From Eledone cirrhosa (taxonomy: Eukaryota), in NCBI GenBank assembly GCA_964016885.1, contig OZ024743.1:173786001-173850000 (forward strand): a stretch of DNA of 64,000 nucleotides, given 5' to 3'. The translations under genes and the position numbers were made by a program. Positions 1-60,300 of the stretch are shown one piece after another (positions within the stretch are counted from its first letter, which is position 1; every line of letters starts with the position of its first letter). The notes under the pieces are model-generated. The model did no database searches, was not told where the DNA came from, and saw only the letters and a list, made by a program, of their open reading frames with translations.

Positions 1-3000
1 TGTGTTAACACACACTGTATAATTGGTACACCTTACTGTGTTAACACACACTGTATAATTGGTACACCTTACTGTGTTAACACACACTGTATAATTGGTA
101 CACCTTACTGTGTTAACACACTATAATTGGTACACCTTACTGTGTTAATACACACTGTATAATTACTACACCTTACTGTGTTAACACATACTGTATAATT
201 GGTACAACTTACACTGTTAACGCAGACTGTATAATTGGTACACCTTACTGTGTTAACACACACTGTATAATTGGTACAGCTTAGTGTTAACGCAGACTGT
301 ATAATTGGTACACCTTACTGTGTTAACGCACACTGTATAATTAGTACACCTTACAGTGTTAACACACACTGTATAATTGGTACACCTTACTGTGTTAACG
401 CACACTGTATAATTGGTACACCTTACTGTGTTAACACACACTGTATAATTTGTACACCTTACTCTGTTAACGCACACTGTATAATTGGTACACCTTACTG
501 TGTTAACACACACTGTATAATTAGTACACCTAACAGTGTTAACACACTGTATAATTAGTACACCTTCCTGTGTTAACGCACACTGTATAATTGGTACACC
601 TTACTGTGTTAACGCAGACTGTATAATTGGTACACCTTACTGTGTTAACACACACTGTATAATTGGTACAGCTTACTGTGTTAACGCAGACTGTATAATT
701 GGTACACCTTACTGTGTTAACGCACACTGTATAATTAGTACACCTTACAGTGTTAACACACACTGTATAATTGGTACACCTTACTGTGTTAACGCACACT
801 GTATAATTGGTACACCTTACTGGGTTAACGCACACTGTATAATTAGTACACCTTACAGTGTTAACACACACTGTATAATTGGTACACCTTACTGGGTTAA
901 CGCACACTGTATAATTAGTACACCTTACAGTGTTAACACACACTGTATAATTGGTACACATTACAGTGTTAACACACACTGTATAATTGGTACACCTTTC
1001 TGTGTTAACACACACTGTATAATTAGTACACCTTACTGTGTTAACACACACTGTATAATTAGTACACCTAACAGTGTTAACACACTGTATAATTAGTACA
1101 CCTTACTGTGTTAACACACACTGTATAATTGGTACACCTTACTGTGTTAATGCACACTGTATAATTGGTACACCTTACAGTGTTAACACACACTGTATAA
1201 TTATTACACCTTACTGTGTTAATGCACACTGTATAAGTTGTACACCTTACAGTGTTAACGCACACTGTATAATTAGTACACCTTACTGTGTTAACACACA
1301 CTGTATAATTGGTACACCTTACTGTGTTAACACACACTGTATAATTGGTACACCTTACTGTGTTAACACACACTGTATAATTGGTACACCTTACTGTGTT
1401 AACACACACTGTATAATGGGTACGCCTTACTGTGTTAACACACACTGTATAATTGGTACACCTTACTGTGTTAACGCACACTGTATAATTAGTACACCTT
1501 ACAGTGTGAACACACACTGTATAATTGGTACACCTTACTGTGTTAACACACACTGTTTAATTGGTACACCTTACTGTGTTAACACACACTGAATAATTGT
1601 TACACCTTACTGTGTTAACGCACACTGTATAATTAGTACACCTTACAGTGTTAACACACACTGTATAATTGGTACACCTTACTGTGTTAACGCACACTGT
1701 ATAATTAGTACACCTTACAGTGTTAACACACACTGTATAATTGGTACACCTTACTGTGTTAACGCACACTGTATAATTGGTACACCTTACTGGGTTAACG
1801 CACACTGTATAATTAGTACACCTTACAGTGTTAACACACACTGTATAATTGGTACACCTTACTGGGTTAACGCACACTGTATAATTAGTACACCTTACAG
1901 TGTTAACACACACTGTATAATTGGTACACATTACAGTGTTAGCACACACTGTATAATTGGTACACCTTACTGTGTTAACACACACTGTATAATTAGTACA
2001 CCTTACTGTGTTAACACACACTGTATAATTAGTACACCTAACAGTGTTAAGACACTGTATAATTAGTACACCTTACTGTGTTAACACACACTGTATAATT
2101 GGTACACCTTACTGTGTTAATGCACACTGTATAATTGGTACACCTTACAGTGTTAACACACACTGTATAATTATTAAACCTTACTGTGTTAATGCACACT
2201 GTATAAGTTGTACACCTTACAGTGTTAACGCACACTGTATAATTAGTACACCTTACTGTGTTAACACACACTGTATAATTGGTACACCTTACTGTGTTAA
2301 CGCACACTGTATAATTAGTACACCTTACAGTGTTAACACACACTGTATAATTGGTACACCTTACTGTGTTAACGCACACTGTATAATTGGTACACCTTAC
2401 TGTGTTAACGCACACTGTATAATTGGTACACCTTACTGTGTTGACGCACACTGTATAATTGGTACACCTTACTGTGTTAACACACACTGAATAATTGGTA
2501 CACCTTTCTGGGTTAACGCACACTGTATAATTGGTACACCTTACTGTGTTAACGCATACTGTATAATTGCTACACCTTACAGTGTTAACACACACTGTAT
2601 AGTTGGTACACATTACTGTGTTAACGCACACTGTATAATTAGTACACCTTACAGTGTTAACACACACTGTATAATTGGTACACCTTACAGTGTTAACACA
2701 CACTGTATAATTGGTACGCCTTACTGTGTTAACACACACTGTATAATTAGCAAACCTTACTGTGTTAACACACACTGTATAATTAGTACACCTTACAGTA
2801 TTAACACACACTGTATAATTGGTACACCTTACTGTGTTAACGCACACTGTATAATTAGTACACCTTACAGTGTGAACACACACTGTATAATTGGTACACC
2901 TTACTGTGTTAACGCACACTGTATAATTGGTACACCTTACTGTGTTAACACACACTGAATAATTGGTACACCTTACTGTGTTAATGCACACTGTATAATT

Positions 3001-6000
3001 AGTACACCTTACAGTGTGAACACACACTGTATAATTGGTACACCTTACTGTGTTAACACACACTGTTTAATTGGTACACCTTACTGTGTTAACACACACT
3101 GAATAATTGTTACACCTTACTGTGTTAACGCACACTGTATAATTAGTACACCTTACAGTGTTAGCACACACTGTATAATTGGTACACCTTACTGTGTTAA
3201 CGCACACTGTATAATTAGTACACCTTACAGTGTTAACACACACTGTATAATTGGTACACCTTACTGTGTTAACGCACACTGTATAATTGGTACACCTTAC
3301 TGGGTTAACGCACACTGTATAATTAGTACACCTTACAGTGTTAACACACACTGTATAATTGGTACACCTTACTGGGTTAACGCACACTGTATAATTAGTA
3401 CACCTTACAGTGTTAACACACACTGTATAATTGGTACACATTACAGTGTTAGCACACACTGTATAATTGGTACACCTTACTGTGTTAACACACACTGTAT
3501 AATTAGTACACCTTACTGTGTTAACACACACTGTATAATTAGTACACCTAACAGTGTTAAGACACTGTATAATTAGTACACCTTACTGTGTTAACACACA
3601 CTGTATAATTGGTACACCTTACTGTGTTAATGCACACTGTATAATTGGTACACCTTACAGTGTTAACACACACTGTATAATTATTAAACCTTACTGTGTT
3701 AATGCACACTGTATAAGTTGTACACCTTACAGTGTTAACGCACACTGTATAATTAGTACACCTTACTGTGTTAACACACACTGTATAATTGGTACACCTT
3801 ACTGTGTTAACGCACACTGTATAATTAGTACACCTTACAGTGTTAACACACACTGTATAATTGGTACACCTTACTGTGTTAACGCACACTGTATAATTGG
3901 TACACCTTACTGTGTTAACGCACACTGTATAATTGGTACACCTTACTGTGTTGACGCACACTGTATAATTGGTACACCTTACTGTGTTAACACACACTGA
4001 ATAATTGGTACACCTTTCTGGGTTAACGCACACTGTATAATTGGTACACCTTACTGTGTTAACGCATACTGTATAATTGCTACACCTTACAGTGTTAACA
4101 CACACTGTATAGTTGGTACACATTACTGTGTTAACGCACACTGTATAATTAGTACACCTTACAGTGTTAACACACACTGTATAATTGGTACACCTTACAG
4201 TGTTAACACACACTGTATAATTGGTACGCCTTACTGTGTTAACACACACTGTATAATTAGCAAACCTTACTGTGTTAACACACACTGTATAATTAGTACA
4301 CCTTACAGTATTAACACACACTGTATAATTGGTACACCTTACTGTGTTAACGCACACTGTATAATTAGTACACCTTACAGTGTGAACACACACTGTATAA
4401 TTGGTACACCTTACTGTGTTAACGCACACTGTATAATTGGTACACCTTACTGTGTTAACACACACTGAATAATTGGTACACCTTACTGTGTTAATGCACA
4501 CTGTATAATTAGTACACCTTACAGTGTTAACACACACTGTATAATTGGTACACCTTACTGTGTTAACGCACACTGTATAATTAGTACACCTTACAGTGTT
4601 AACACACACTGTATAATTGGTACACCTTACTGTGTTAACGCACACTGTATAATTGCTACACCTTACTGTGTTAACGCACACTGTATAATTGGTACACCTT
4701 ACTGTGTTAACGCACACTGTATAATTGGTACACCTTACTGTGTTAACACACACTGAATAATTGGTACACCTTACTGTGTTAACGCACACTGTATAATTGG
4801 TACACCTTACTGTGTTAACACACACTGTATAAATAGTACACCTTACAGTGTTAACACACACTGTATAATTAGTACACCTTACAGTGTTAACACACACTGT
4901 ATAATTGGTACACCTTACTGGGTTAAGGCACACTGTATAATTAGTAAACCTTACAATGTTAACACACACTGTATAATTGGTACACCTTACAGTGTTAACA
5001 CACACTGTATAATTGATACACCTTACTGGGTTAACGCACACTGTATAATTAGTACACCTTACAGTGTTAACACACACTGTATAATTAGTACACCTTACAG
5101 TGTTAACACACTGTATAATTGGTACACCTTACTGTGTTAACACACACTGTATAATTAGTACACCTTACTGTGTTAACACACACTGTATAATTAGTACACC
5201 TTACAGTGTTAACACACACTGTGTAATTGGTACACCTTACTGTGTTAACACACACTGTATAATTAGTACACCTTAGTGTGTTAACACACACTGTATAATT
5301 GGTACACCTTACTGTGTTAACACACACTGTATAATTGGTACAGCTTACTGTGTTAACGCAGACTGTATAATTGGTATACCTTACTGTGTTAACGCACACT
5401 GTATAATTAGTACACCTTACAGTGTTAACACACACTGTATAATTGGTACACCTTACTGTCTTAACGCACACTGTATAATTGGTACACTTTACTGGGTTAA
5501 CGCACACTGTATAATTAGTACACCTTACAGTGTGAACACACACTGTATAATTGGTACACCTTACTGGGTTAACACACACTGTATAATTGGTACACCTTAC
5601 TGTGTTAATGCACACTGTATAATTGGTACACCTTACAGTGTTAACACACACTGTATAATTATTACACCTTACTGTGTTAACGCACACTGTATAAGTTGTA
5701 CACCTTACAGTGTTAACGCACACTGTATAATTAGTACACCTTACTGTGTTAACACACACTGTATAATTGGTACACCTTACTGTGTTAACACACACTGTAT
5801 AATTGGTACACCTTACTGTGTTAACGCACACTGTATAATTGGTACACCTTACTGTGTTAACACACACTGTATAATGGGTACGCCTTACTGTATTAACTCA
5901 CACTGTATAATTGGTACACCTTACTGTGTTAACGCACACTGTATAATTGGTACACCTTACTGTGTTAACACACACTGTATAATTGGTACACCTTACTGTG

Positions 6001-41416: not shown

Positions 41417-43215
41417 CATCATCATCATCATCATCAACATTTAACGTCCGTGTTCCACGCTTGCATGGGTTTGGACGGGGGTAGTCCCACTTGAGGCAAG
41501 AGTGATTGTCTTGCTCGCATAGGACTGTCTGGCAGGTTTTCTACAGTTGGATGCCCTTCCTAACACCAACCACATTTACAGTGTGGGTCTGGGAGGTTTT
41601 TACCGTGTTGCCTACACGGCCACATTACAGCGTGGACTGTGTGTTTTTTTGTCATGACACCTACACGATCTCATTTGTTTCGGCCTGGATGGCGCGGCAC
41701 CAACATAACTTTACATAGAACGGGGTGGTGTGGATGGGGTGGGGGTGGTGGGACGGGGTGTATTTTGTTAGAGATGCCTACTGGCTGGAGTAGGTTTTAC
41801 TATATATATTTAGGTAAGGCGGGTCTTCTCTGTTACTGAGTACCGCCAAAGGTCTCGGTCCAGTGACATTGTCTTGGAGAGGTGTAAGTGTGTGATGTCG
41901 GAGTTTATCAGCTCGTCCCAGGTTTTTCTAGGTCTGCCTATTCCGTGACTACCGTCTATCTTTATTGCCCTGCACTTTGTTATACAGCTATCGACTTTCA
42001 TGCGCATCACGTGTCCATACCAACGTAGCCTTCTCTCGAGTAAACAACATCTGATCCCTCTTATCTCTAATTTTTTCCTTAGTTCGTTTCTGCTTTGCCG
42101 TTCACGTATATTACTGTTACACATCCAGCGGAGCATGCAAGCTTCGTTCCTCTCTAGTCTGCGTATATCCTCTGCACACAATGCCCAGGTCTCACTGCCA
42201 TGCAACATTGCTGTTCGTATGCAGGCATTGTACAACCTGCCTTTCATTTTTAGGGAGAATCCTTTAGCAGCTAATAGTGGTATAAGCTCTCTGAACTTTT
42301 TCCAACCAGTTCTGACTCTAGCTACAGTACTTTCAGAGCACCCTCCCCCACTGCTGATTTTATCGCCCAGGTAACGGAAGCTATCCACTATTTCTATAGA
42401 ACCCTCTGCGCAATTGAAAGAGCTAGTATTTTGTGGGCACTTGCTGCTACTTATTGCACCAGAACACCGGCCACATGTAAAATCTATGTTCTTAGTTAGC
42501 TTACCTGTGATCCCACTACATCTTTTATGCACCCATACTTTGCATTTAGGACATAAAATGGAGTTTCTACCTACGCCTTTCCTACACACCGAGCACGACC
42601 ATTTCCCAGAAGGGACCGCCGCCTTGTTTTCTTTCCTACAAACTAGAACTTTGGTCTTAGCCAGGTTAATTTTAAGTCCTTTTGACTCTAGGCTGTGCTT
42701 CCATGTTTGGAATTTCTTCTCTAGCTCGGCCATTGATTCCGCTATGAGTGTCAGGTTGTCTGCGTATAGGAGTTCCCATGGGCAGCCTGTCTTGAACTCC
42801 TCTGTTATAGCCTGAAGGGCAATAATAAATAGTAGGGGGCTGAGAACAGAGCCCTGATGGACGCCAACTTTTATGCTAAACTCTTCACTATATTCGTTGT
42901 TAATTCTAACCTTGCTGACTGTTTCTTTATACATGGCTTGTATAGCCCTCACAAGCCATTCGTCAACGCCTAGTTTTCTAAGAGCCCACCAGATAATGGA
43001 GCGGGGGACTCTGTCGAAGGCTTTCTCCAGGTCGACAAAAGCTAAGTAGAGGGGTTTACCTTTAGCTAGGTACTTCTCCTGTAGTTGTTGTACTATGAAA
43101 AGAGCGTCTGTGGTACTTTTGCCTGACACAAACCCGAACTGCATTTCATCTAGGTCAATTCTCTCTCTGATTAGTTGCGCTATTACTTTTTCCGTGACCT
43201 TTATGACCTGGTCGA
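41417..43215 (-). mobile_element. RTE-clade LINE copy 1, 5'-truncated (RT, PHD-type finger, C-terminus, ~390-bp 3' region, (GAT)n tail)
   Basis: ORF 41810-43267 has QFGF, FVDLEKAFDRV, GVHQGSVLSPLLF, LLYADN (catalytic YADD mutated), FRYLG, GSETW, RLRWYGHV, GRPRKTW. Confidence 0.95.
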
Positions 43216-43393
43216 TTAATTTAATAATATATATTTTAAGTGTTACGTAATTCCAAAGGAAAAGCAAAGGAAAAAAGAGTGCTCTATGTATAGAACAGAG
43301 CTATTTAATTAGAAAGTGAACAACACAAAATATAACTACTCCATTACCAAAGGTTTCTGGATCACAGGCGATAATAATAATATACGTCTGGAT

Positions 43394-48278: not shown

Positions 48279-51200
48279 TCATCATCGTTTAACGTCTATC
48301 TTCCATGCTAGCATGGGTTAGACGGGAGTTATCCCACTTGAGGAAAGATCGCTTGTATAGGACTATTTGGCAGGTTTTCTACGGCTGGATGCCTTTCCTA
48401 ACACCAACCACACTTACAGTATGGACTGGGAGCTTTTTTACTGTGTTACCTATACGACCACATTACAGCGTGGACTGTGTTTTTTTTTTGTCGTGACACC
48501 TACACGACCTCATTAGTTTGGACTGGATGTTGTGATACCAACAACTTTACAGAGAAAGGGTGGTGTTGGCGGGAGTGGGAGGATGGAGTTGGGGTAATGG
48601 GTTGGGGTGTATGTTTGGTTTGGAGGGGCCTACTGACTGTAAGTTAACTTTGAACGTAGGGAAGGCGGGTCTTCTGTATTACTGCGTGGCGCCAAAGATC
48701 TTGGTCCAGTGACATTGTCTTAGAAATGTGCAAGTGTGCAAAGTTGGAATTTATCATGTCGTCCCAGGTTTTTCTGGGTCTACCTACTCTGTAACTTCCA
48801 TCAATTTTGATCACCCTGCACTTTTTTATGCAGCTGTCGTCTTTCATGCACATCACGTGGCCATACCAACGTAGTCTTCTCTCGAGTAAACCGCATCTGA
48901 TCTCTCTTATTCCTAATTTCTCACTTAGTTCATTTATGTTTTGCTGTTTGTGTATATTACTATTACACATCCAACGGAGCATGCATGCTTCATTCTTTTC
49001 CAGTCTGTGCAGGTCCTCTGCACACAATGCCCATGTCTCACTGCCATGTAACATTGCTGTTCGTATACAAGCATCATACATTCTGCCTTTCATTTTTAGA
49101 GAGAAACCTTTTGTGACCAATAGCGGTATAAGCTCCCTGAACCTTTTCCATCTCGTTCTAACTCTGGCTACTGTACTTTCTGAGCACCCTCCACCACTGC
49201 TGATTTTGTCACCCAGGTAACGGAAAGTGTGCACTATTTCTATAGAACCATCTGGGCAGTAGAAGGAACTAGTATCATGTAGGCACTTGCTACTTATTGC
49301 ACCTGAGCATCGGCCATATATAAAATCTACATTCTAAGATAGCTTGCCTGTGATCCCACTACATCTTTTATGTACCTATAGTTTGCATTTGGGACATAAA
49401 ATGGAATTTCTACCTACTCCTTTCCTACATACTGAACATGGCCATTTCCCAGAGGGGACCTGTGCCCTATTTTCCTTCCTACATCTGACTCAGACTCAGA
49501 AGCTCCCGCGTCTTGCGACGCATGAGGCAATCATAGTGTTCCATCGCGTTCGGTCAGCAGCCAGTTTCACAGCGTCCCGCCATTGTCTGTTTGTCGCTCG
49601 CAGGTCCCTCTCAACTGTCTGGCGCCAGTTCATTTTGGGTCGCCATCTCCGTCTGCTTCCCTGCGGGCTCCATTTAAGTACTTGGTTCGCCAGTCTCTCG
49701 GGGAGGGGGAAGTTTCAAAGCATGTCCAAACCAGCCCATGCATCGCTTGCAGATGGTAGAAGAGACTAGCTGCTGGTTGGTGCGGTTCCTGACTTCCTGG
49801 TTTGTTACATGGTCACTCCATTTAATCCCCAGGATCTTTCGCAGACATCTGGAATCGAATGCATCCAACTTCTTCTCTTGGCTGGTCTTAAGGTGCCATG
49901 TTTCACTTCTGTACAAGAGTGTGGACAGCACGTTGCTGTTGTAGAATCTCATCTTAACTTTAAGGCCTTTTGATTCTAGGCCATGCTTCCATGTTTGGAA
50001 TTTCTTCTCTAGTTCAGCCTTAGATTCAGCTATGAGAGTTAGATCATCTGCCCATGGGCAGCCGGTGTTAAACTCCTCTGTTATAGCCTGAAGGGCAATA
50101 ATAAATAGGAGGGGGCTAAGGACAGAGCCCTGATGAACACCACCTTTTACACTAAATTCTTCACTATATTCGTTGTTAATTCTAACCTTGCTGACTGTTT
50201 CTTTATACATGGCTTGTATAGCTCTCACAAGCCATTCATCAACCCCTAGTTTTCTAAGGGCCCACCAGATAATGGAGTGGGGTCTCTGTCAAAGGCTTTC
50301 TTCAAGTCAAAAAAAGCTAAGTAGAGGGGTTTACTTTTAGTTAGGTACTTCTCCTGAAGTTGTACAAGGAAAAGTGCATCTGTGGTACTTTTACCTGACA
50401 CAAACCCAAACTGCATTTCATCTAGATCAATTCGATCTCTGATTAGTTGTGCTATAACTCTTTCTGTGACCTTAATGACCTGGTCAACTAACTTAATGCT
50501 TCTATAGTTTCCCTTATCTAGGGCATTTCCTTTACCCTTGTAGCAGATAATGATGATACTGCTATGCCAGTCATTTGGTATGACGCCATTCTGTATTACT
50601 TGGTTTACTATCTGGGTGACCATAGTATGTCCCACCATTCCAGATGCTTTCAACATCTCAGCAACTATTTCCGAAGGCCCAGCTGCCTTACCTGTCTTCA
50701 TATCTTTGATTGCTTTACTTATTATACTACCATTAACTTGCACTGCTGGTCCCTCTATCGGATCGATTTGGGACAGACATTTTCCCATTTATTCTCTTTA
50801 GTAGTCTCTCATAGTGACACTTCCAAGCTACCTTCTTATCAGTATCAGTGAGGGCAAGTAGACCATCATCATTACGGACACACTTCTCCCCGACAATATC
50901 ATGGTTTTCCTTGACACATTGTCTTGCGATCTTGAACACCTCATGTTTTTGTTCCTCGCATTGTAGAACATGCTTGAACTTTCTATCCACTGCTTCTCTT
51001 CTTGCAAAGTACACTTGGCTCCTAGCTTCCCTCCTGGCCACTTGATAGTGTTCTCTACTTCTCCCATCCTGCCATACTTTCGAAGCTTGCTTTTTGGCCT
51101 TGATTGTCTCCTCCACCTTACTGTTCCATCACCAAGTTGCTCTCCTCCTGCCTATAGGTCTGCTCCAGCCACAGATTTCATCTGTCGCCTTCAGCAGGTT

Positions 51201-51670
51201 AACTTTCAAGAATTCCCACTGTTCCTCTATATTGCTCTTCCTTACTGTCAAAAGTATCAAGTAATATGCTTTTAAATTTGTTACTGGCTGTGGGGTTCTT
51301 CAACTTCCATATTCTTGTCCTGAAAGTAGTCCTCCTCTGTCATCGAGTACGTCAAGTCCTGAGTATGAGGTCACTAACCAATAGTTGATCAAGTGACTGT
51401 TTCGTTTTTTGAATTTTGTGTTACAGATAGTTAGGTTATTAACGTCACAGAATTCCAGGATTCTGAAGCCTTCCTCATTTCTAGTACCAAACCCATAGCC
51501 TCCATGGATTGCATCATAGCCATCACAATGTTGTCCAACATGACCGTTTAGGTCTTTTATAACATCACATAGGCCAGTTTGGGGTGGATAAGTGGATATT
51601 ATTGTCACAGTAGTTCTATTTAGAACTAATCTTATTTTAATTATTCTGTTGTTCACTCAATTTACAGCAA
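48277..51670 (-). mobile_element. RTE-clade LINE copy 2, decayed (partial AP endonuclease, RT, PHD-type finger), with a nested insertion
   Basis: Fragmented ORFs 51300-51656 (DLNGHVG, ICNT), 50733-51116, 50246-50788 (KAAGP, NYRSIKL, QFGF), 49674-50228 and 48644-49234. Contains frameshifts and a deletion of ELLY before ADD. Confidence 0.93.
49484..49955 (-). mobile_element. Nested 3' fragment of a third RTE family with (CTGAGT)n tail
   Basis: Interrupts colinearity with copy 1 between TTCCTACA and TTAA.TTTAAG. Encodes LLYRSETW...CLRKILGIKWSD...WFGH. Confidence 0.85.
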
Positions 51671-51727: not shown

Positions 51728-51866
51728 AACGAAGGAAATGTGGTAAGGAACCAGGTGGACCATAACGCACCAAAGTACTCAATACTTGAGGTAGTAGAGT
51801 GGATAATAGGAACCAGTAAGACCCCGACAGCTGAGCTCAAGCCGTTTCGACGGCTAATTCTGGAAG
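51728..51866 (-). repeat. Second copy of the ~140-bp element at 38465-38605
   Basis: High identity in reverse complement. Confidence 0.9.
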
Positions 51867-51990
51867 TGTATATGTATATATATATGTGTATATATGTATA
51901 TATATATATGTGTATATATATGTATATGTGTATATATATGTATATATATATATATGTGTATATATGTATATATATATGTGTATATATATG

Positions 51991-52021
<31 letters not shown>

Positions 52022-52096
52022 GTGTATATATGTGTATATATATGTATATATATATATATATATGTATATATATGTGTATATATGTATATATATATG

Positions 52097-52127
<31 letters not shown>

Positions 52128-52144
52128 GTGTATATATGTATATA

Positions 52145-52185
<41 letters not shown>

Positions 52186-52264
52186 ATATATGTATATATA
52201 TATGTGTATATATATGTATATATATATATATATATATATGTATATGTGTGTATATATATGTATG

Positions 52265-52295
<31 letters not shown>
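51867..52295. repeat. Long imperfect (TA)n/TATG microsatellite
   Basis: Directly visible. Confidence 0.98.
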
Positions 52296-52296
<1 letters not shown>

Positions 52297-52335
52297 ATAA
52301 ATAAATAACAAAGAACGCTTATAGCATATGCATAT

Positions 52336-52393
52336 CTTTACTTGCTAACATTGTTTCATCCGCACTATAAGTGGGACTCATCAGAGCATAAAG
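52336..52393 (-). ncRNA. Minimal type I hammerhead ribozyme motif (left arm)
   Basis: Exact reverse complement of 55662-55719. Confidence 0.75.
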
Positions 52394-52984
52394 GTTAATT
52401 ACATACCATACAAGCAATAACAAATCCAAGACATTGAAGAATGAAAGGTAATAATAGACGATAGAGGATAAGAATAAAAATAAAAATAAAAATAAAAATA
52501 AAAGTAAAAATAAAAATAAAAATAAGGGGTGCTATCAGTCACAGTTGGGCGGGGTGCTGTCAACATATAGTTACATACAAGCATACACATGGATAAGAGT
52601 ACAGACAAGAGTAGACACATGGATAAGAGAACAGACAAGAGTAGATAAGATAATGGGATTAGGTAAGAGTAGGTAAAAAATAGGTAAAAAATAGGTGAAA
52701 AACAGACTTATAATATATATAAAAAGAAATACAAAGAAATACATAACAAACTTACATATAAAATATAAAAAATAAAATATAGGGTAAGGAATGAGATAAA
52801 ATAATATAAAATTAAAAATTAAAAATTATATACATAGAACATAATATAGTATAATCATAAAATAAGATAAAATAAGGTAAACTAAAATCAAATAACATAG
52901 ACTAAATTAAAATAATATAATATACGATATAATTAAATGTATAATTAAATGTAATTAAATGTAATTAAATAAAATAAAATAAAA

Positions 52985-53027
<43 letters not shown>

Positions 53028-53102
53028 AAATTAAAAATTAAATAAAATTAAAATTAAAATTTTAAAATTTTAAAATTTCAAAATTAAAATTAAAATTTAA
53101 AT

Positions 53103-53138
<36 letters not shown>

Positions 53139-54930
53139 ATGGAGTCAAGTAAGTAAATAAATAAAATTAGATAACATGAAATGAAATAAAATGAAATAAA
53201 GTAAATTGAGATAAGATATATATTTTTTTAGAATATATCTCTTGAATATATCAGGGGCCCACGAAGGCACTAAATGTCACAGTTATATTGACCAATTTTT
53301 TAAAAAATATTTTTCATGAAAACATCAGGGGCCCACGAAGGCACTAAGTGTCACAGTCACCAGTATCACTTGACCATTGCAAGGCAATGGAGGCGTCCCA
53401 GGTTGGGCAGTCTCGAAAGTTCACTCGAAAGTCATGGGTGTGCATTCACACAGTTGAGCGGTGGGGTAATCACAAACCGGTTCACACACGGGCAGGAGTC
53501 AATTGGTCAGAGAGGTGCATCAAAGGAGGTAGAAGAATTCACATGCATTAGCAAGCGAGGTGAGATTAAAGCAAGCAGATACAGTTGTAGCGCATACAAA
53601 ATATATATAAAGACAGAAGATATATAAAAAGCCATTAAGTCACCGCATTGGGACATCACAAGATTGTACACATCAATATGTTCAGCACGTATATGCACGT
53701 ATACACACCACATGCATATGCAGAGACGGTATACATATATATATATATATATTTTTTATATATATACACAGACACATATAACCACCTACACCCATACACA
53801 TATAAATGTATACACGGACACACACACACACACACACAGCGTAGGACACCCGGGTCAAAGCCGATATTAAATACGATATTAAATACGATATTAAACACCG
53901 AAATACCACATTAGACCAGACCCACCACCACAGGTAATATATTCAAAACAAATACATACGATGAGATGTATTAAAATAAAGTTGAAATCCTACGGAGATA
54001 TTCATGTCTGCACGTGCCATTGACCGGTTCGAGTGCACGTACACTCGAACCGGTCAATGGCACGTGCAGACATGAATATCTCCGTAGGATTTCAACTTTA
54101 TTTTAATACATCTCATCGTATGTATTTGTTTTGAATATATTACCTGTGGTGGTGGGTCTGGTCTAATGTGGTATTTCGGTGTTTAATATCGTATTTAATA
54201 TCGGCTTTGACCCGGGTGTCCTACGCTGTGTGTGTGTGCGTGTGTGTCCGTGTATACATTTATATGTGTATGGGTGTAGGTGGTTATATGTGTCTGTGTA
54301 TATATATAAAATATATATATATATATGTATACCGTCTCTGCATATGCATGTGGTGTGTATACGTGCATATACGTGCTGAACATATTGATGTGTACAATCT
54401 TGTGATGTCCCAATGCGGTGACTTAATGGCTTTTTATATATCTTCTGTCTTTATATATATTTTGTATGCGCTACAACTGTATCTGCTTGCTTTAATCTCA
54501 CCTCGCTTGCTAATGCATGTGAATTCTTCTACCTCCTTTGATGCACCTCTCTGACCAATTGACTCCTGCCCATGTGTGAACCGGTTTGTGATTACCCCAC
54601 CGCTCAACTGTGTGAATGCACACCCATGACTTTCGAGTGAACTTTCGAGACTGCCCAACCTGGGACGCCTCCATTGCCTTGCAATGGTCAAGTGATACTG
54701 GTGACTGTGACACTTAGTGCCTTCGTGGGCCCCTGATGTTTTCATGAAAAATATTTTTTAAAAAATTGGTCAAGTGATACATATAACTGTGACATTTAGT
54801 GCCTTCGTGGGCCCCTGATATATTCAAGAGATATATTCTAAAAAAATATATATCTTATCTCAATTTACTTTATTTCATTTTATTTCATTTCATGTTATCT
54901 AATTTTATTTATTTACTTACTTGACTCCAT

Positions 54931-54970
<40 letters not shown>

Positions 54971-55053
54971 ATTTAAATTTAAATTTTAATTTTGAAATTT
55001 TAAAATTTTAAAATTTAAATTTTAATTTTATTTATTTATTTAATTTTTAATTT

Positions 55054-55092
<39 letters not shown>

Positions 55093-55661
55093 TTTTATTT
55101 TATTTAATTTAATTACATTTAATTATACATTTAATTATATCTTATATTATATTATTTTAATTTAGTCTATGTTATTTGATTTTAGTTTACCTTATTTTAT
55201 CTTATTTTATGATTATACTATATTATGTTCTATGTATATAATTTTTAATTTTTAATTTTATATTATTTTATCTCATTCCTTACCCTATATTTTATTTTTT
55301 ATATTTTATATGTAAGTTTGTTATGTATTTCTTTGTATTTCTTTTTATATATATTATAAGTCTGTTTTTCACCTATTTTTTACCTATTTTTTACCTACTC
55401 TTACCTAATCCCATTATCTTATCTACTCTTGTCTGTTCTCTTATCCATGTGTCTACTCTTGTCTGTACTCTTATCCATGTGTATGCTTGTATGTAACTAT
55501 ATGTTGACAGCACCCCGCCCAACTGTGACTGATAGCACCCCTTATTTTTATTTTTATTTTTACTTTTATTTTTATTTTTATTCTTATCCTCTATCGTCTA
55601 TTATTACCTTTCATTCTTCAATGTCTTGGATTTGTTATTGCTTGTATGGTATGTAATTAAC

Positions 55662-55719
55662 CTTTATGCTCTGATGAGTCCCACTTATAGTGCGGATGAA
55701 ACAATGTTAGCAAGTAAAG
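55662..55719 (+). ncRNA. Minimal type I hammerhead ribozyme motif (right arm)
   Basis: CTTTA-TGCT | CTGATGA | GTCC-CAC-TTATA-GTG-C-GGAT (stem II) | GAAA-C-AAT-G-TT | AGCA-AG-TAAAG (stem I). Predicted cleavage after GUU at 55708. Confidence 0.75.
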
Positions 55720-55851
55720 ATATGCATATGCTATAAGCGTTCTTTGTTATTTATTTATTATATTACGGCTCTGTCCTTACATTGAGCTAACCTCATACTG
55801 CCTGCTGGATAAGTGGAGTGTTATACACCCCTGATCCTTTCCCTAGCATAC

Positions 55852-56084
<233 letters not shown>

Positions 56085-56332
56085 TCATCATCATCATCAG
56101 GTTTAGCGTCCGTGTTCCACGCTTGCATGGGTTTGGACGGGGGTTTTCCCACTTGAGGCAAGAGTGGTTGTCTTGCTCGCATAGGACTGTCTGGCGGGTT
56201 TTCTACAGCTGGATGCCCTTCCTAACACCAACCACATTTACAGTGTGGGGCTGGGAGGTTTTTACCGTGTTGCCTACACGGCCACATTTACAGCGTGGAC
56301 TGTGTGTTTTTTTTGTCGTGACACCTACACGA

Positions 56333-56421: not shown

Positions 56422-56709
56422 TGTATATATAGTGTATTTTGCAATACACTGTATGCTTAATTAAAAGCATTTCGAAGAACTTACGCTATTGTTTTAGAGT
56501 AGTGACAGTCTCACTTACTTTAAATTTTCAGCAAACAGGGGAGATAAAGCTGACAGAGCTCTGTTTCGTACTTTTTGGTACTTATCAAAACTAAGTACTC
56601 CACCTGTTTGCTGAAAATCATGAATGTTTGATTCTTATAGAATTCTAGTAATAATCAGGAACTGATTATACAGAGCGGTTGCCGGTCAAGCAGAAATTGA
56701 AAATTAGAA

Positions 56710-56753
<44 letters not shown>

Positions 56754-56755
56754 GG

Positions 56756-57018
56756 AGGCACATGGCTTAGTGGTTAGAGCATTGGCCTTGCAATCGAAAG
56801 GTTGTGAGTTCAATTCTCAGACCAGGTGATGTGTTGTTTCCTTGAGCAAGACACTTTATTTCACATTGCTCCAGTTTACTCAGCTGTAGAAATGAGATGA
56901 TAGGGACGTGTAGGAGCCACGGCAAAAAAAGCACCCAGCACTCACTGTAAATGAGGTTGGTGTTAGGAAGGGCATCCAGCTGTAGAAATCAAGCCCGTCC
57001 CACCCTTGCAAGCAGGGA
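56756..57018 (+). mobile_element. SINE family B, internally shortened, with a tail matching RTE copy 3
   Basis: Head and CORE-like segment as at 37849. Ends CCCGTCCCACCCTTGCAAGCAGGGA. Confidence 0.87.
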
Positions 57019-57057: not shown

Positions 57058-60000
57058 CATCATCATCATAATCATCATCATCATCATCATTTTACGTCCG
57101 CTCTTCCCTGCTTGCAAGGGTGGGATGGGTCTTATTCAGCACAGCATCTCTCCACTTGTCATGGTCCTTCGTCATCTCCACCGTGAGCTTCAGCGATCTG
57201 AGTTCTGTTCTCACCACCTCCGCCCATGTTTTTCGTGGTCTACCTCTACCACGTCTTCCTTCAACTGGCATTTCCTGGCACTTCTTCACCCATCGGTCAT
57301 CCTCCATGCGCATCACATGTCCATACCACCTCAGTCTCCTCTCTCGCACACTACATTCTAGCACTCTCAGACACAGTTTCTCTCTTAACACATTCATGCT
57401 GGGTCGTTCACGCACATTGACACTGCACATCCAACGGAGCATGCTTGCCTCATTTCTCTCCAGCCATCGCATATCCTCTGCAGTTGCTGCCCATGTCTCA
57501 CTACCATGCAGCATCGCACTCCTCACACAGGCATCGTATAACCGGCCTTTCGTACGCAGGGAGAAACCCTTCTTCGTCAGCAGAGGAAACAGCTCCCTAA
57601 ACTTCTTCCAACCCATCCTTATTCTAGATACTATGGCCTCGGAACACCCCCCTCCCATGCTAATCTGATCTCCTAGGTACCGGAAGCTATCCACCACTTC
57701 TATAGCACCCGCCTGCATTTGAAAAATGTGTCTATCAATGCGACTTCTACTGTCTAATTTCCTTGTACATCTACTGCATACGTATTTCTCCCTACCTGTT
57801 AGTTTGCCTGCTATCCCGCTACATCTCTTGTGTGCCCAGGATCTGCATGGTGTGCATTTTATAGAATTTATGCCAGTTCCTTTTCTGCATATCGAACATG
57901 GCCATTTCCCTGACGGAATCAGAGTTTTGTCCTCTTTTCTACTCATCAACACTTTTGTCTTAGCTAGGTTCACTCTCAGTCCTCTTGCTTCCAACTGCTG
58001 TTTCCATAGCCAGAATTTATTCTCTAGCTCCTCTACTGATTCTGCTATAAGAAGCAGATCGTCAGCATAGAGAAGTACCCATGGACAGCCAGTCTTAAAC
58101 TCCTCTGTTATGGCTTGGAGGACTATAATGAACAAAGCGGGCTGAGGACCGAACCTTGATGTACTCCTACTTGTATCTGGAATTCCTCACTAAACTCCAT
58201 TCCTACCCTGACTTTACTGAGAGTACCTCTGTACAAAGTTTGCACTGTCCTCACAAGCCATTCCTCAACACCTAGTTTCCTTAGGGACCACCAGATGACA
58301 GATCGGGGTACCCTATCAAAGGCCTTCTCTAGGTCAACAAAGGCTAAGTATAGTGGCTTATTTTTCTCTAAGAACCTCTCTTGTAATTGTCTCACCAAGA
58401 AGAGGGCATCTGTTGTACTCTTTCCAGGCACAAAACCAAACTGCATCTCATCTAGTTTGATCCTTTCTCTAATTAGTTGTGCTAATATCCTTTCTGCCAC
58501 TTTCATAACCTGATCTATCAGTTTTATACCCCTATAATTGCTCCTCTCCAGAGCATCCCCTTTACCTTAGTAGCAATTTATGAGAATACTGCTGCACCAG
58601 TCTTTGGGTATGACACCACCATGTATAGCCTGATTGATGATGCGTGCAACCAGTTTAGTGCCTACGTTCCCTGATGCCTTCAGCATCTCAGCAACTATCC
58701 TCAATGGTCCAGCAGCCTTACCATTTTTCATTTCCTTAATCGCCTCTTGGACCCTATATTCGTCAATCTCAATAGCTGGTCCTTCTGTTGGATCTACTGA
58801 GGGTAATTTCTCTCTGTCCCATTCGTTCTCCACATTCATCAGTCTCTCTTAATGACATATCCAGGCCTCCTTTTTCTTATCATTCGTGATACTAAGTACA
58901 CTGGCATCATTCCGGACACATTTATCTCCAACAACATCCTGATTTGCATTGACACACTGCCTTGCAATGTGGAACACCGCACGCCTCTGATCTTCCCATC
59001 GCAGAACATTGGCAAACCTCCTACTCTCAGCCTCCCTGGGTGCTAAGTACACCTGACATCTAGCTTCTCTCTTAGCGGCTGTATATTCTTACCTACTCCC
59101 ACCCTTTTTCCAAGCCTTCCATGCTAGTCTTTTGTCTCTAATGGCCTTATCTACTGTGCTGTTCCACCACCATGTCACTCTCTGTCTGATTGGAGCTCAG
59201 CTCCAGCCACAAGTTTCATCAGTAGCCTGCAGTAAGTTGTCACGTAAAAAATTCCAGTTATTATCTATGACATACATCTCTAAATCGTCTTCTTTTTCGT
59301 CATACGCATCTTGAAGGGCTTTCTTAAATTTGTATTTTAGTGAAAGGTCTTTTAGCTTCCAGACCTTTCTTTTACATACCTTCCTGTATGTCTCATTCCA
59401 TCTCTTGCTTACTGAGATATCACTAACGACTAACCTATGCTGTGGGGTACATTCTTCCCCAGGTATGCCTTGGTATTAGACACTATCTGCCTGTCCCGCT
59501 CCCTAACTAGTAAGAAGTCAATCTGGCTTATGTGCTCGCCAGATTTGTAGGTTATTAGGTGATTGGCAGGTTTCTGGAAGTTTGTGTTGCAAATAGTCAG
59601 TGTACTTGCATCACAAAATTCAAGAAGTCTCACTCCTTCTTCATTTCTTGAGCCGTAACCGTGCCCACCATGTACCCCAGTGTAACCATCCTGGAGCTGT
59701 CAAACATGACCATTGAAGTCCCCTGCTAGCATAACGATGTCTCCGTCCTCTGTCATTGCGATTGTTTGTAAAAGTTGCTCGTAAAAGCAGTCTTTCTCAT
59801 CTTTGCCTAGGCCTGCTTGGGGAGCATAGGCAGAGATGATTGTCAGTAGTCTCCTACCTACAACTAATCTAAGCTTAATTATTCGATTACTAACTCGAAC
59901 TACCTCTATTGTCTTATTGATCCATCTCTCAGCCAGGAAAATGCCTACTCCCCCTAACCCATCATCCTTACCTACCCAGAAAAGCTTATAGCTAAGATGT

Positions 60001-60300
60001 TTGCCTACGACTAGTCTCGCAGAGGCACCTCTCCATCTCACCTCTTGCATGCAGCACACATCCACATGCCTTCTCTCCAGCATCTCCGCTATTTCAGCAG
60101 ATCTACCTCTGAGAGTGCCAACATTAAGTGTTGCAACTCTGAGATGCGACGTCTTCATATTTTGTTGTTGTTCCTATCTATTTGTTGCTGTGCTGATATG
60201 CGTTTTGGCATTGATACACTGGTTGGATGCCCTTCCTAACACCAGCGCCACTTTACAGCATGGACTGGGTGCTTTTATTTGTGCCACCAGCACTAGAGAG
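57058..60300 (-). mobile_element. RTE-clade LINE copy 3, near full length (5'UTR, AP endonuclease, RT, PHD-type finger), inactivated by stops and frameshifts
   Basis: ATG at 60158. Endonuclease motifs ATLNVGTL, CCMQEVRW, SAYAPQ, GDFNGHV, QIDFLLV. RT motifs KAAGP, QFGF, DLEKAFD, GVHQGSVLSP, LLYADD. ORF ends directly at the (GAT)n tail. Confidence 0.96.

Follow-up and report, generated by a model that had tools for sequence, protein, structure and literature searches.

Structure of the locus

The window analysed here, 64,000 nucleotides of the Eledone cirrhosa genome (contig OZ024743.1, positions 173,786,001 to 173,850,000), contains two inverted arms at 52,292–54,038 (1,747 nt) and 54,039–55,763 (1,725 nt), whose alignment has 1,704 matches, eight substitutions and 48 gap columns. 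The arms meet head to head at 54,038/54,039 without any spacer, with the centre GAGTGCACGTACACTC, and one of the eight substitutions lies at this centre (54,036/54,041). The original prediction of two spacer-less arms of about 1.7 kb with a mismatch near the centre is thus borne out, as is the absence of a credible ORF, since the ORFs of at least 80 aa in the arms are readings of simple repeats of 80–139 aa. An extra unit on the left arm is likewise present (12 bp). The “extra ~9 bp” ascribed to the right arm does reflect a length difference, but it amounts to 8 bp and is a loss in the left arm only: none of the other fetched arms shares the loss and 12 have the right-arm form. The differences outside microsatellites are each private to one or the other arm, and therefore the two arms probably started out alike and diverged later; an origin from two known donor haplotypes is unsupported for the same reason.

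The whole insertion spans 52,292–55,855 and its outer ends are unequal. The left arm (minus strand) corresponds to about 3239/3242–4949 of the reference unit described below and is a 5′-truncated 3′ UTR with a tail-less terminus (E1). The right arm (plus strand) is the 5′-truncated 3′ UTR from reference 3239 to 4949 and continues into a tail at 55,764–55,855 (plus strand), which consists of the 92 nt with which the next tandem unit begins, namely its 5′ UTR (the ORF starts with the ATG at reference 163), and forms the tailed terminus E2. The target is a (TA)n microsatellite, interrupted by (TG) units in its left part (51,866–52,291) and continuing on the right at 55,856–56,085; no target-site duplication is readable in the (TA)n DNA flanking the insertion. 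The idea that the palindrome sits directly between two (TA)n tracts accordingly holds for the left arm, which abuts its tract, but not for the right arm, which is separated from the tract by the 92 nt of element sequence. The head-to-head junction (54,029–54,048) is unique in the genome and lies at a self-complementary GTGTACAC site of the element, within a hot spot of 5′ breaks (reference 3228–3260).

Close to its outer end each arm carries the same type I minimal hammerhead motif, 44 nt before the arm end, in agreement with the expected ~45 bp. On the right arm it occupies 55,661–55,719 (plus strand), with a CUGAUGA core, stem II, GAA and an ACA/A/UGU stem III, and is predicted to cut after GUU at 55,706–55,708; the identical motif of the left arm occupies 52,336–52,394 (minus strand), with a predicted cut after 52,347. 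These coordinates run from stem I to stem I, were obtained by sequence reading and a constrained fold with one bulge in stem II, and place the predicted cut 55 nt from the arm end. An Rfam scan reported no hammerhead in the arms at E ≤ 1, its matches being microsatellite-driven miRNA only, and the fold is modestly better than that of shuffled sequences (z −1.5); both the missing Rfam match and the weak fold score are what one would expect of a motif that lacks a stable stem III. In a diverged relative the hammerhead has an altered N7, altered loops and an altered bulge, with the G-U closing pair replaced by G-C (constrained fold). A 35-mer of the hammerhead core has 712 exact matches in the 3.0-Gb genome and the control has none. 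Single minimal Penelope hammerheads are described as giving no detectable cleavage in vitro, with weak and dimer-dependent activity (PMC4209133), and Penelope insertion chemistry is described as proceeding in vitro without a need for hammerhead cleavage (PMC11167929). The hammerheads of the window would be passengers in the pseudo-LTR, their cleavage being a prediction from sequence.

Elsewhere in the window, an unrelated hammerhead-like fold with the altered core UUGAUAA lies between (TA)n tracts at 56,530–56,605 (minus strand); it matches Rfam HH9 below threshold (E = 0.23), has a fold z-score of −3.1 and may be a terminus of an older Penelope-like family. A 36-bp satellite of about 957 copies with higher-order variation fills 1–34,257. 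Fragments of non-LTR retrotransposon ORFs with reverse transcriptase (RT) and a Cys-rich insert, which we take to be of RTE type by their motifs, are located at 41,810–43,300, 48,644–51,656 and 57,092–60,173, and a probable SINE with a tRNA-like head (28 bits to the Rfam tRNA model) follows a (TA)n tract at 56,755–56,960.

Assembly of the palindrome

Long palindromes are prone to artefacts, and no contig from the sequencing runs bridges the centre by the 31-letter rule; among the tabulated contigs of runs X1, X3 and X5 there is no centre-crossing piece, and the RAD-seq run X10 gave no placed reads. A fold-back read chimera or assembly artefact is nevertheless highly improbable given that each arm has private changes, that the ends obey the E1/E2 rule of the family (see below) and that the flanks are not mirrored. 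A 57-nt contig of run X2 also spans the centre, covering 15 nt on one side and 42 nt on the other and differing at one letter, at a depth of 30 compared with about 600 for the element; this is weak evidence, as X2 is possibly the assembly's own sample.

The arms derive from a Penelope-like element

At first look, a 491-bp piece of the arm had 623 candidate matches across the 3.0-Gb genome, 40 of which were scored. The fetched copies lead into a unit of 4,949 bp (the reference being one genomic copy, L029–L030) with an 830-aa ORF at 163–2655 followed by a 2.3-kb 3′ UTR. The ORF contains the RT motifs FDI, MGS and YRDD as well as, at its C terminus, a GIY-YIG nuclease (NIVY..YIG..RFNSH), and its homologue clusters carry the RVT_1 and GIY-YIG families; a Pfam search with the ORF from two copies and a PDB sequence search gave no match. 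In each of three further full-length units that were inspected, the reading frame is shifted at a C run close to the beginning of the ORF. Partial tandems forming pseudo-LTRs are present at L023, L027, L029, L046, L048 and L049. The suspected link to Penelope is confirmed by these full-length copies, in which the arms adjoin the RT and GIY-YIG ORF; together with the 712 hammerhead matches they contradict the view of the arm as single-copy host DNA.

Judged by its sequence motifs, the parent is an EN+ Penelope-like element of Hydra-clade type. The ORF has DKT at residue 122 (instead of DKG), the CxCx5C linker CNCRRASGC at 689, and CNLC at 787 and CPH at 815, a CxxC and a CxH that flank the E and N residues; RWR at residue 39 is a conservative change of the RWK of the Hydra clade, a Cx2-5CxxC motif is absent from the reference ORF and there is no GxKF/Y match. 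Of 128 termini, 120 run into TA-rich DNA, corresponding to the (TA)n preference of that clade. The element thus shares the C-terminal GIY-YIG, DKT, CxCx5C, the CxxC and CxH around E and N and the (TA)n target with Hydra-clade elements including Hydra-1_Obim as described by Craig et al. 2021 (PMC8557442), and the hammerhead has a 1-nt loop III and a U at the cut site like those of Hydra-1_oBim and Hydra-1_aJap. Its sequence differs from that of the Hydra-1_oBim hammerhead, and the element therefore represents another family of the clade. In contrast to RWK and to the length of generally less than 3 kb given for the clade, a tendency rather than a criterion (PMC8557442), it has RWR and a unit of 4.95 kb with its 2.3-kb 3′ UTR and an N-rich linker. 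This Asn/Gly-rich linker, at about residues 480–590 between the RT thumb and the nuclease, contains a 78-bp duplication and recalls the N-rich inserts described for the Penelope ORFs of Adineta (PMC3846280).

The locus is accordingly almost certainly a single insertion into (TA)n of a Penelope-like element that is autonomous and belongs to the Hydra clade; it is composed of two 5′-truncated 3′ ends placed head to head, and the copy in the window, having no ORF, is most likely inert. The original prediction had instead proposed a non-autonomous fold-back or retrozyme-like element. That a self-propagating family of this type exists, with the palindrome as its unit, seemed conceivable in view of the missing ORF and of several copies breaking near the same place, but is very improbable: the genome search for other palindromic copies returned a single match to the centre at up to one mismatch, each of the other inverted loci has its own centre, and the arms are made of the ordinary 3′ UTR that the autonomous unit carries. 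Barring daughter copies in other individuals, the unique centre refutes a fold-back family as source; what the window holds is a doubly 5′-truncated insertion of the autonomous element. Of the two labels, Penelope-like stands and retrozyme-like does not: like the animal non-LTR retrozymes described in bioRxiv 10.64898/2026.07.22.740005 the locus has a type I hammerhead and encodes no protein, but those are tandem direct repeats, whereas here we found no tandem direct hammerhead monomers and a single inverted pair from an autonomous element.

Tail-less and tailed ends are paired

The termini of the family are of two kinds, E1 at the unit end and E2 92–94 nt further, past the tail. The first 100 hammerhead matches listed, all on contig 1, correspond to 69 loci, 35 of which are head-to-head two-ended insertions, and each of these 35 combines one E1 with one E2. 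Long inverted structures are thus common in this family rather than rare. The other 34 loci show a single 3′ end within the fetched stretch (12 E1 only, 22 E2 only), and therefore the two-ended outcome accounts for about half of the cases. The same pairing was found in all seven two-ended insertions among 16 top-hit loci including the window. As a replicate we used 53 not-yet-fetched loci, genome-wide, of a 75-match pattern of another subfamily: these comprise 22 E1/E2 insertions, one E2/E2 insertion, two unclassified inverted loci (L129, L149), one convergent pair, 25 loci with one end in the stretch and two with none, so that E1 + E2 holds for 22 of the 23 classifiable loci. Pooling all sets, exactly one E1 and one E2 are present in 64 of 65 classifiable two-ended insertions, for which the chance under independent even-odds end choice is about 2 × 10−18. 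The sole exception, the E2/E2 insertion L111 (G000:C3:346276091-346279532), has arms with identical last 434 nt and different flanks. In five of the 64 loci (L060, L067, L124, L136, L139), the second arm comprises no more than a piece of the tail and has no sequence in common with the first arm. At L044 (5492–5601) a second tail copy lies just beyond the tailed end, with (TA)n between.

An inverted layout of Penelope-like elements has already been published (PMC8557442); the present analysis adds a new family, a non-coding tail of 92–94 nt and a counted pairing rule. The canonical layout (PMC8557442, Fig 2 legend; PMC3846280) shares with the loci studied here the head-to-head arms, the junction palindromes and the tail on one arm. 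It differs in that its tail is described as 30–40 nt long and extending into the ORF; moreover, both arms of the window stop before the ORF and the pairing is counted here (64 of 65). In the literature searched, with older subscription papers and most supplements outside its scope, we found no statement of a strict pairing rule or of twin priming for Penelope-like elements.

Kinship of the arms and their junctions

For comparison of arm kinship, 116 arms were projected on the reference; six loci were too short to score and L098 was misaligned. In most scorable loci, no other arm is more closely related to either arm than its partner is, and locus-private variants are common to both partners at L034, L035, L048, L049, L051, L012 and L029. 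In several loci (L037, L038, L075, L011, L014) an arm resembles other copies more than it does its partner. In one arm of L138, three linked alleles within a patch of 13 nt belong to another subfamily, and one arm of L140 has a single such allele; in both cases they lie just 5′ of the hammerhead and may reflect conversion, a template switch or two RNAs. In 42 loci, the longer arm ends in E1 in 16 cases and in E2 in 21, the arms being within 40 nt of each other in five. Either end type can thus be the longer one, and there is no constant nesting of one arm within the other.

The junctions have an overlap of at least 1 nt in 40 of 64 loci and at most five extra bases in 57 of 64. Symmetric centres, in which the break points of the two arms lie within 10 nt, occur in nine of the 64 loci compared with 1.0 expected, a number reached in none of 20,000 permutations. 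The window is such a symmetric case, at its self-complementary site in the break hot spot; in L044 and L078, which also belong to the nine, a short fold-back piece precedes a jump. Short perfect palindromes are found at the junctions of the window, L044, L047, L087, L109 and L138. The 5′ breaks are spread across the unit with several hot spots, and a fixed transcript start as the only cause of the centre was rejected on these grounds. Reference 3228–3260 contains nine of the 35 breaks of the interval 2700–3900 (scan p about 10−4, from hand-read positions), with no unusually stable RNA fold beside the cluster. A second hot spot, where many arms break at the hammerhead's stem I or slightly 5′ of it, lies at about reference 4826–4854 (L042, L050, L109, L115, L119, L122, L139, L156).

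Origin of the inverted arms

In the twin priming of L1 elements one RNA is primed by the second target end as well, which leads to an inverted segment joined by microhomology, with the two cDNAs covering different parts of the RNA. In the family described here, by comparison, the cDNAs begin at two fixed sites and can have up to kilobases in common. We slightly favour the view that here, too, a single element RNA serves as template for reverse transcription primed from the two target ends, and the overall explanation, which joins the identity of the element to a twin-priming origin, is the best we can offer and reasonably probable. In its most specific form, which we advance tentatively and rate a little below an even chance, asymmetric twin priming on one RNA by a dimeric RT-endonuclease, with a fixed start site (E1 or E2) per target end and re-copying by strand displacement, would produce the one-sided tail along with the inverted pseudo-LTR, all in one reaction. 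The element protein, probably a dimer, would cut both target strands; one DNA end would prime at E1 and the other at E2, 92–94 nt further 3′, and the E2 copy would halt before E1 or follow by strand displacement of the first cDNA. To our knowledge, Penelope RTs lack RNase H. Both cDNAs would then stall (in the window at the same hot spot) and join at their truncated ends via a few complementary bases, after which host repair would fill in. Should a single barrier or RNA end stop both of them, the outcome would be a near-perfect palindrome such as that of the window; a fold-back step may still help to form symmetric centres.

Twin priming on one RNA is consistent with the E1/E2 rule, the shared haplotypes, the parity of arm lengths, the tail-only arms, the junction overlaps and the in vitro data on Poseidon. 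The E2/E2 insertion L111, the unclassified loci L129 and L149, the mixed alleles of L138 and L140, the loci with closer relatives than the partner arm and the single-ended half of the contig-1 sample count against it, and shared haplotypes would also be expected if one donor gave two transcripts or if the arms underwent conversion. The Poseidon protein PAc of Anolis, a predicted dimer, is described as cutting and extending both strands of an AT-rich target in vitro and as starting at two sites within the RNA between which the tail lies (PMC11167929). It belongs to another clade, however, no difference in start site was seen between the strands, and the pairing of sites was outside the tests of that study, which, as far as its available text goes, assigns no site to either target end and leaves inversions unexplained.

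In the published layout of inverted 5′-truncated copies, often with a tail at one end only (PMC8557442), the junction palindromes have been interpreted as self-priming on an antisense template (PMC3846280). Following this proposal (Arkhipova et al, 2013; Craig et al, 2021), a single strand, either antisense RNA or first cDNA, would fold back at its 3′ end and be extended, and the endonuclease would trim the open end of the hairpin, one strand at E1 and the other at E2, before it joins the target. Such a hairpin accounts for one E1 and one E2 end and for identical arms, and it predicts both the excess of symmetric centres, some of them at self-complementary sites, and the short perfect palindromes at junctions. 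A fixed polarity would, however, place one end type always on the longer arm, whereas 16 and 21 cases were observed, and an E1-started cDNA has no tail for copy-back. Simple fold-back of one cDNA fails because the tail-less arm is longer in some loci and because five second arms consist of tail only, without sequence common to the first arm; we therefore consider the self-priming hairpin unlikely. Still less probable, though not negligible, is the use of two RNAs of the same donor locus in an asymmetric dimer, with E1 used on one and E2 on the other. This would produce the same end rule and a shared haplotype, would suit the other-subfamily alleles in one arm of L138 and L140, and could draw on the dimer predicted for Poseidon (PMC11167929). 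Among the two-ended loci compared, however, none has arms wholly from two subfamilies, and the coupled break points suit one template better.

For the inverted arms and the one-sided tail of Penelope elements, self-priming on an antisense template or resolution by the endonuclease has been proposed in the literature. If asymmetric twin priming is true, the rule found in 64 of 65 insertions would be its genomic signature. The family is young and has hundreds of copies, and its strict pairing rule, coupled break points and intact ORF make the mechanism experimentally approachable. For the host, the consequence is a genome with many kilobase-long spacer-less inverted repeats, which, if transcribed, could be drawn into RNA editing or small-RNA pathways.
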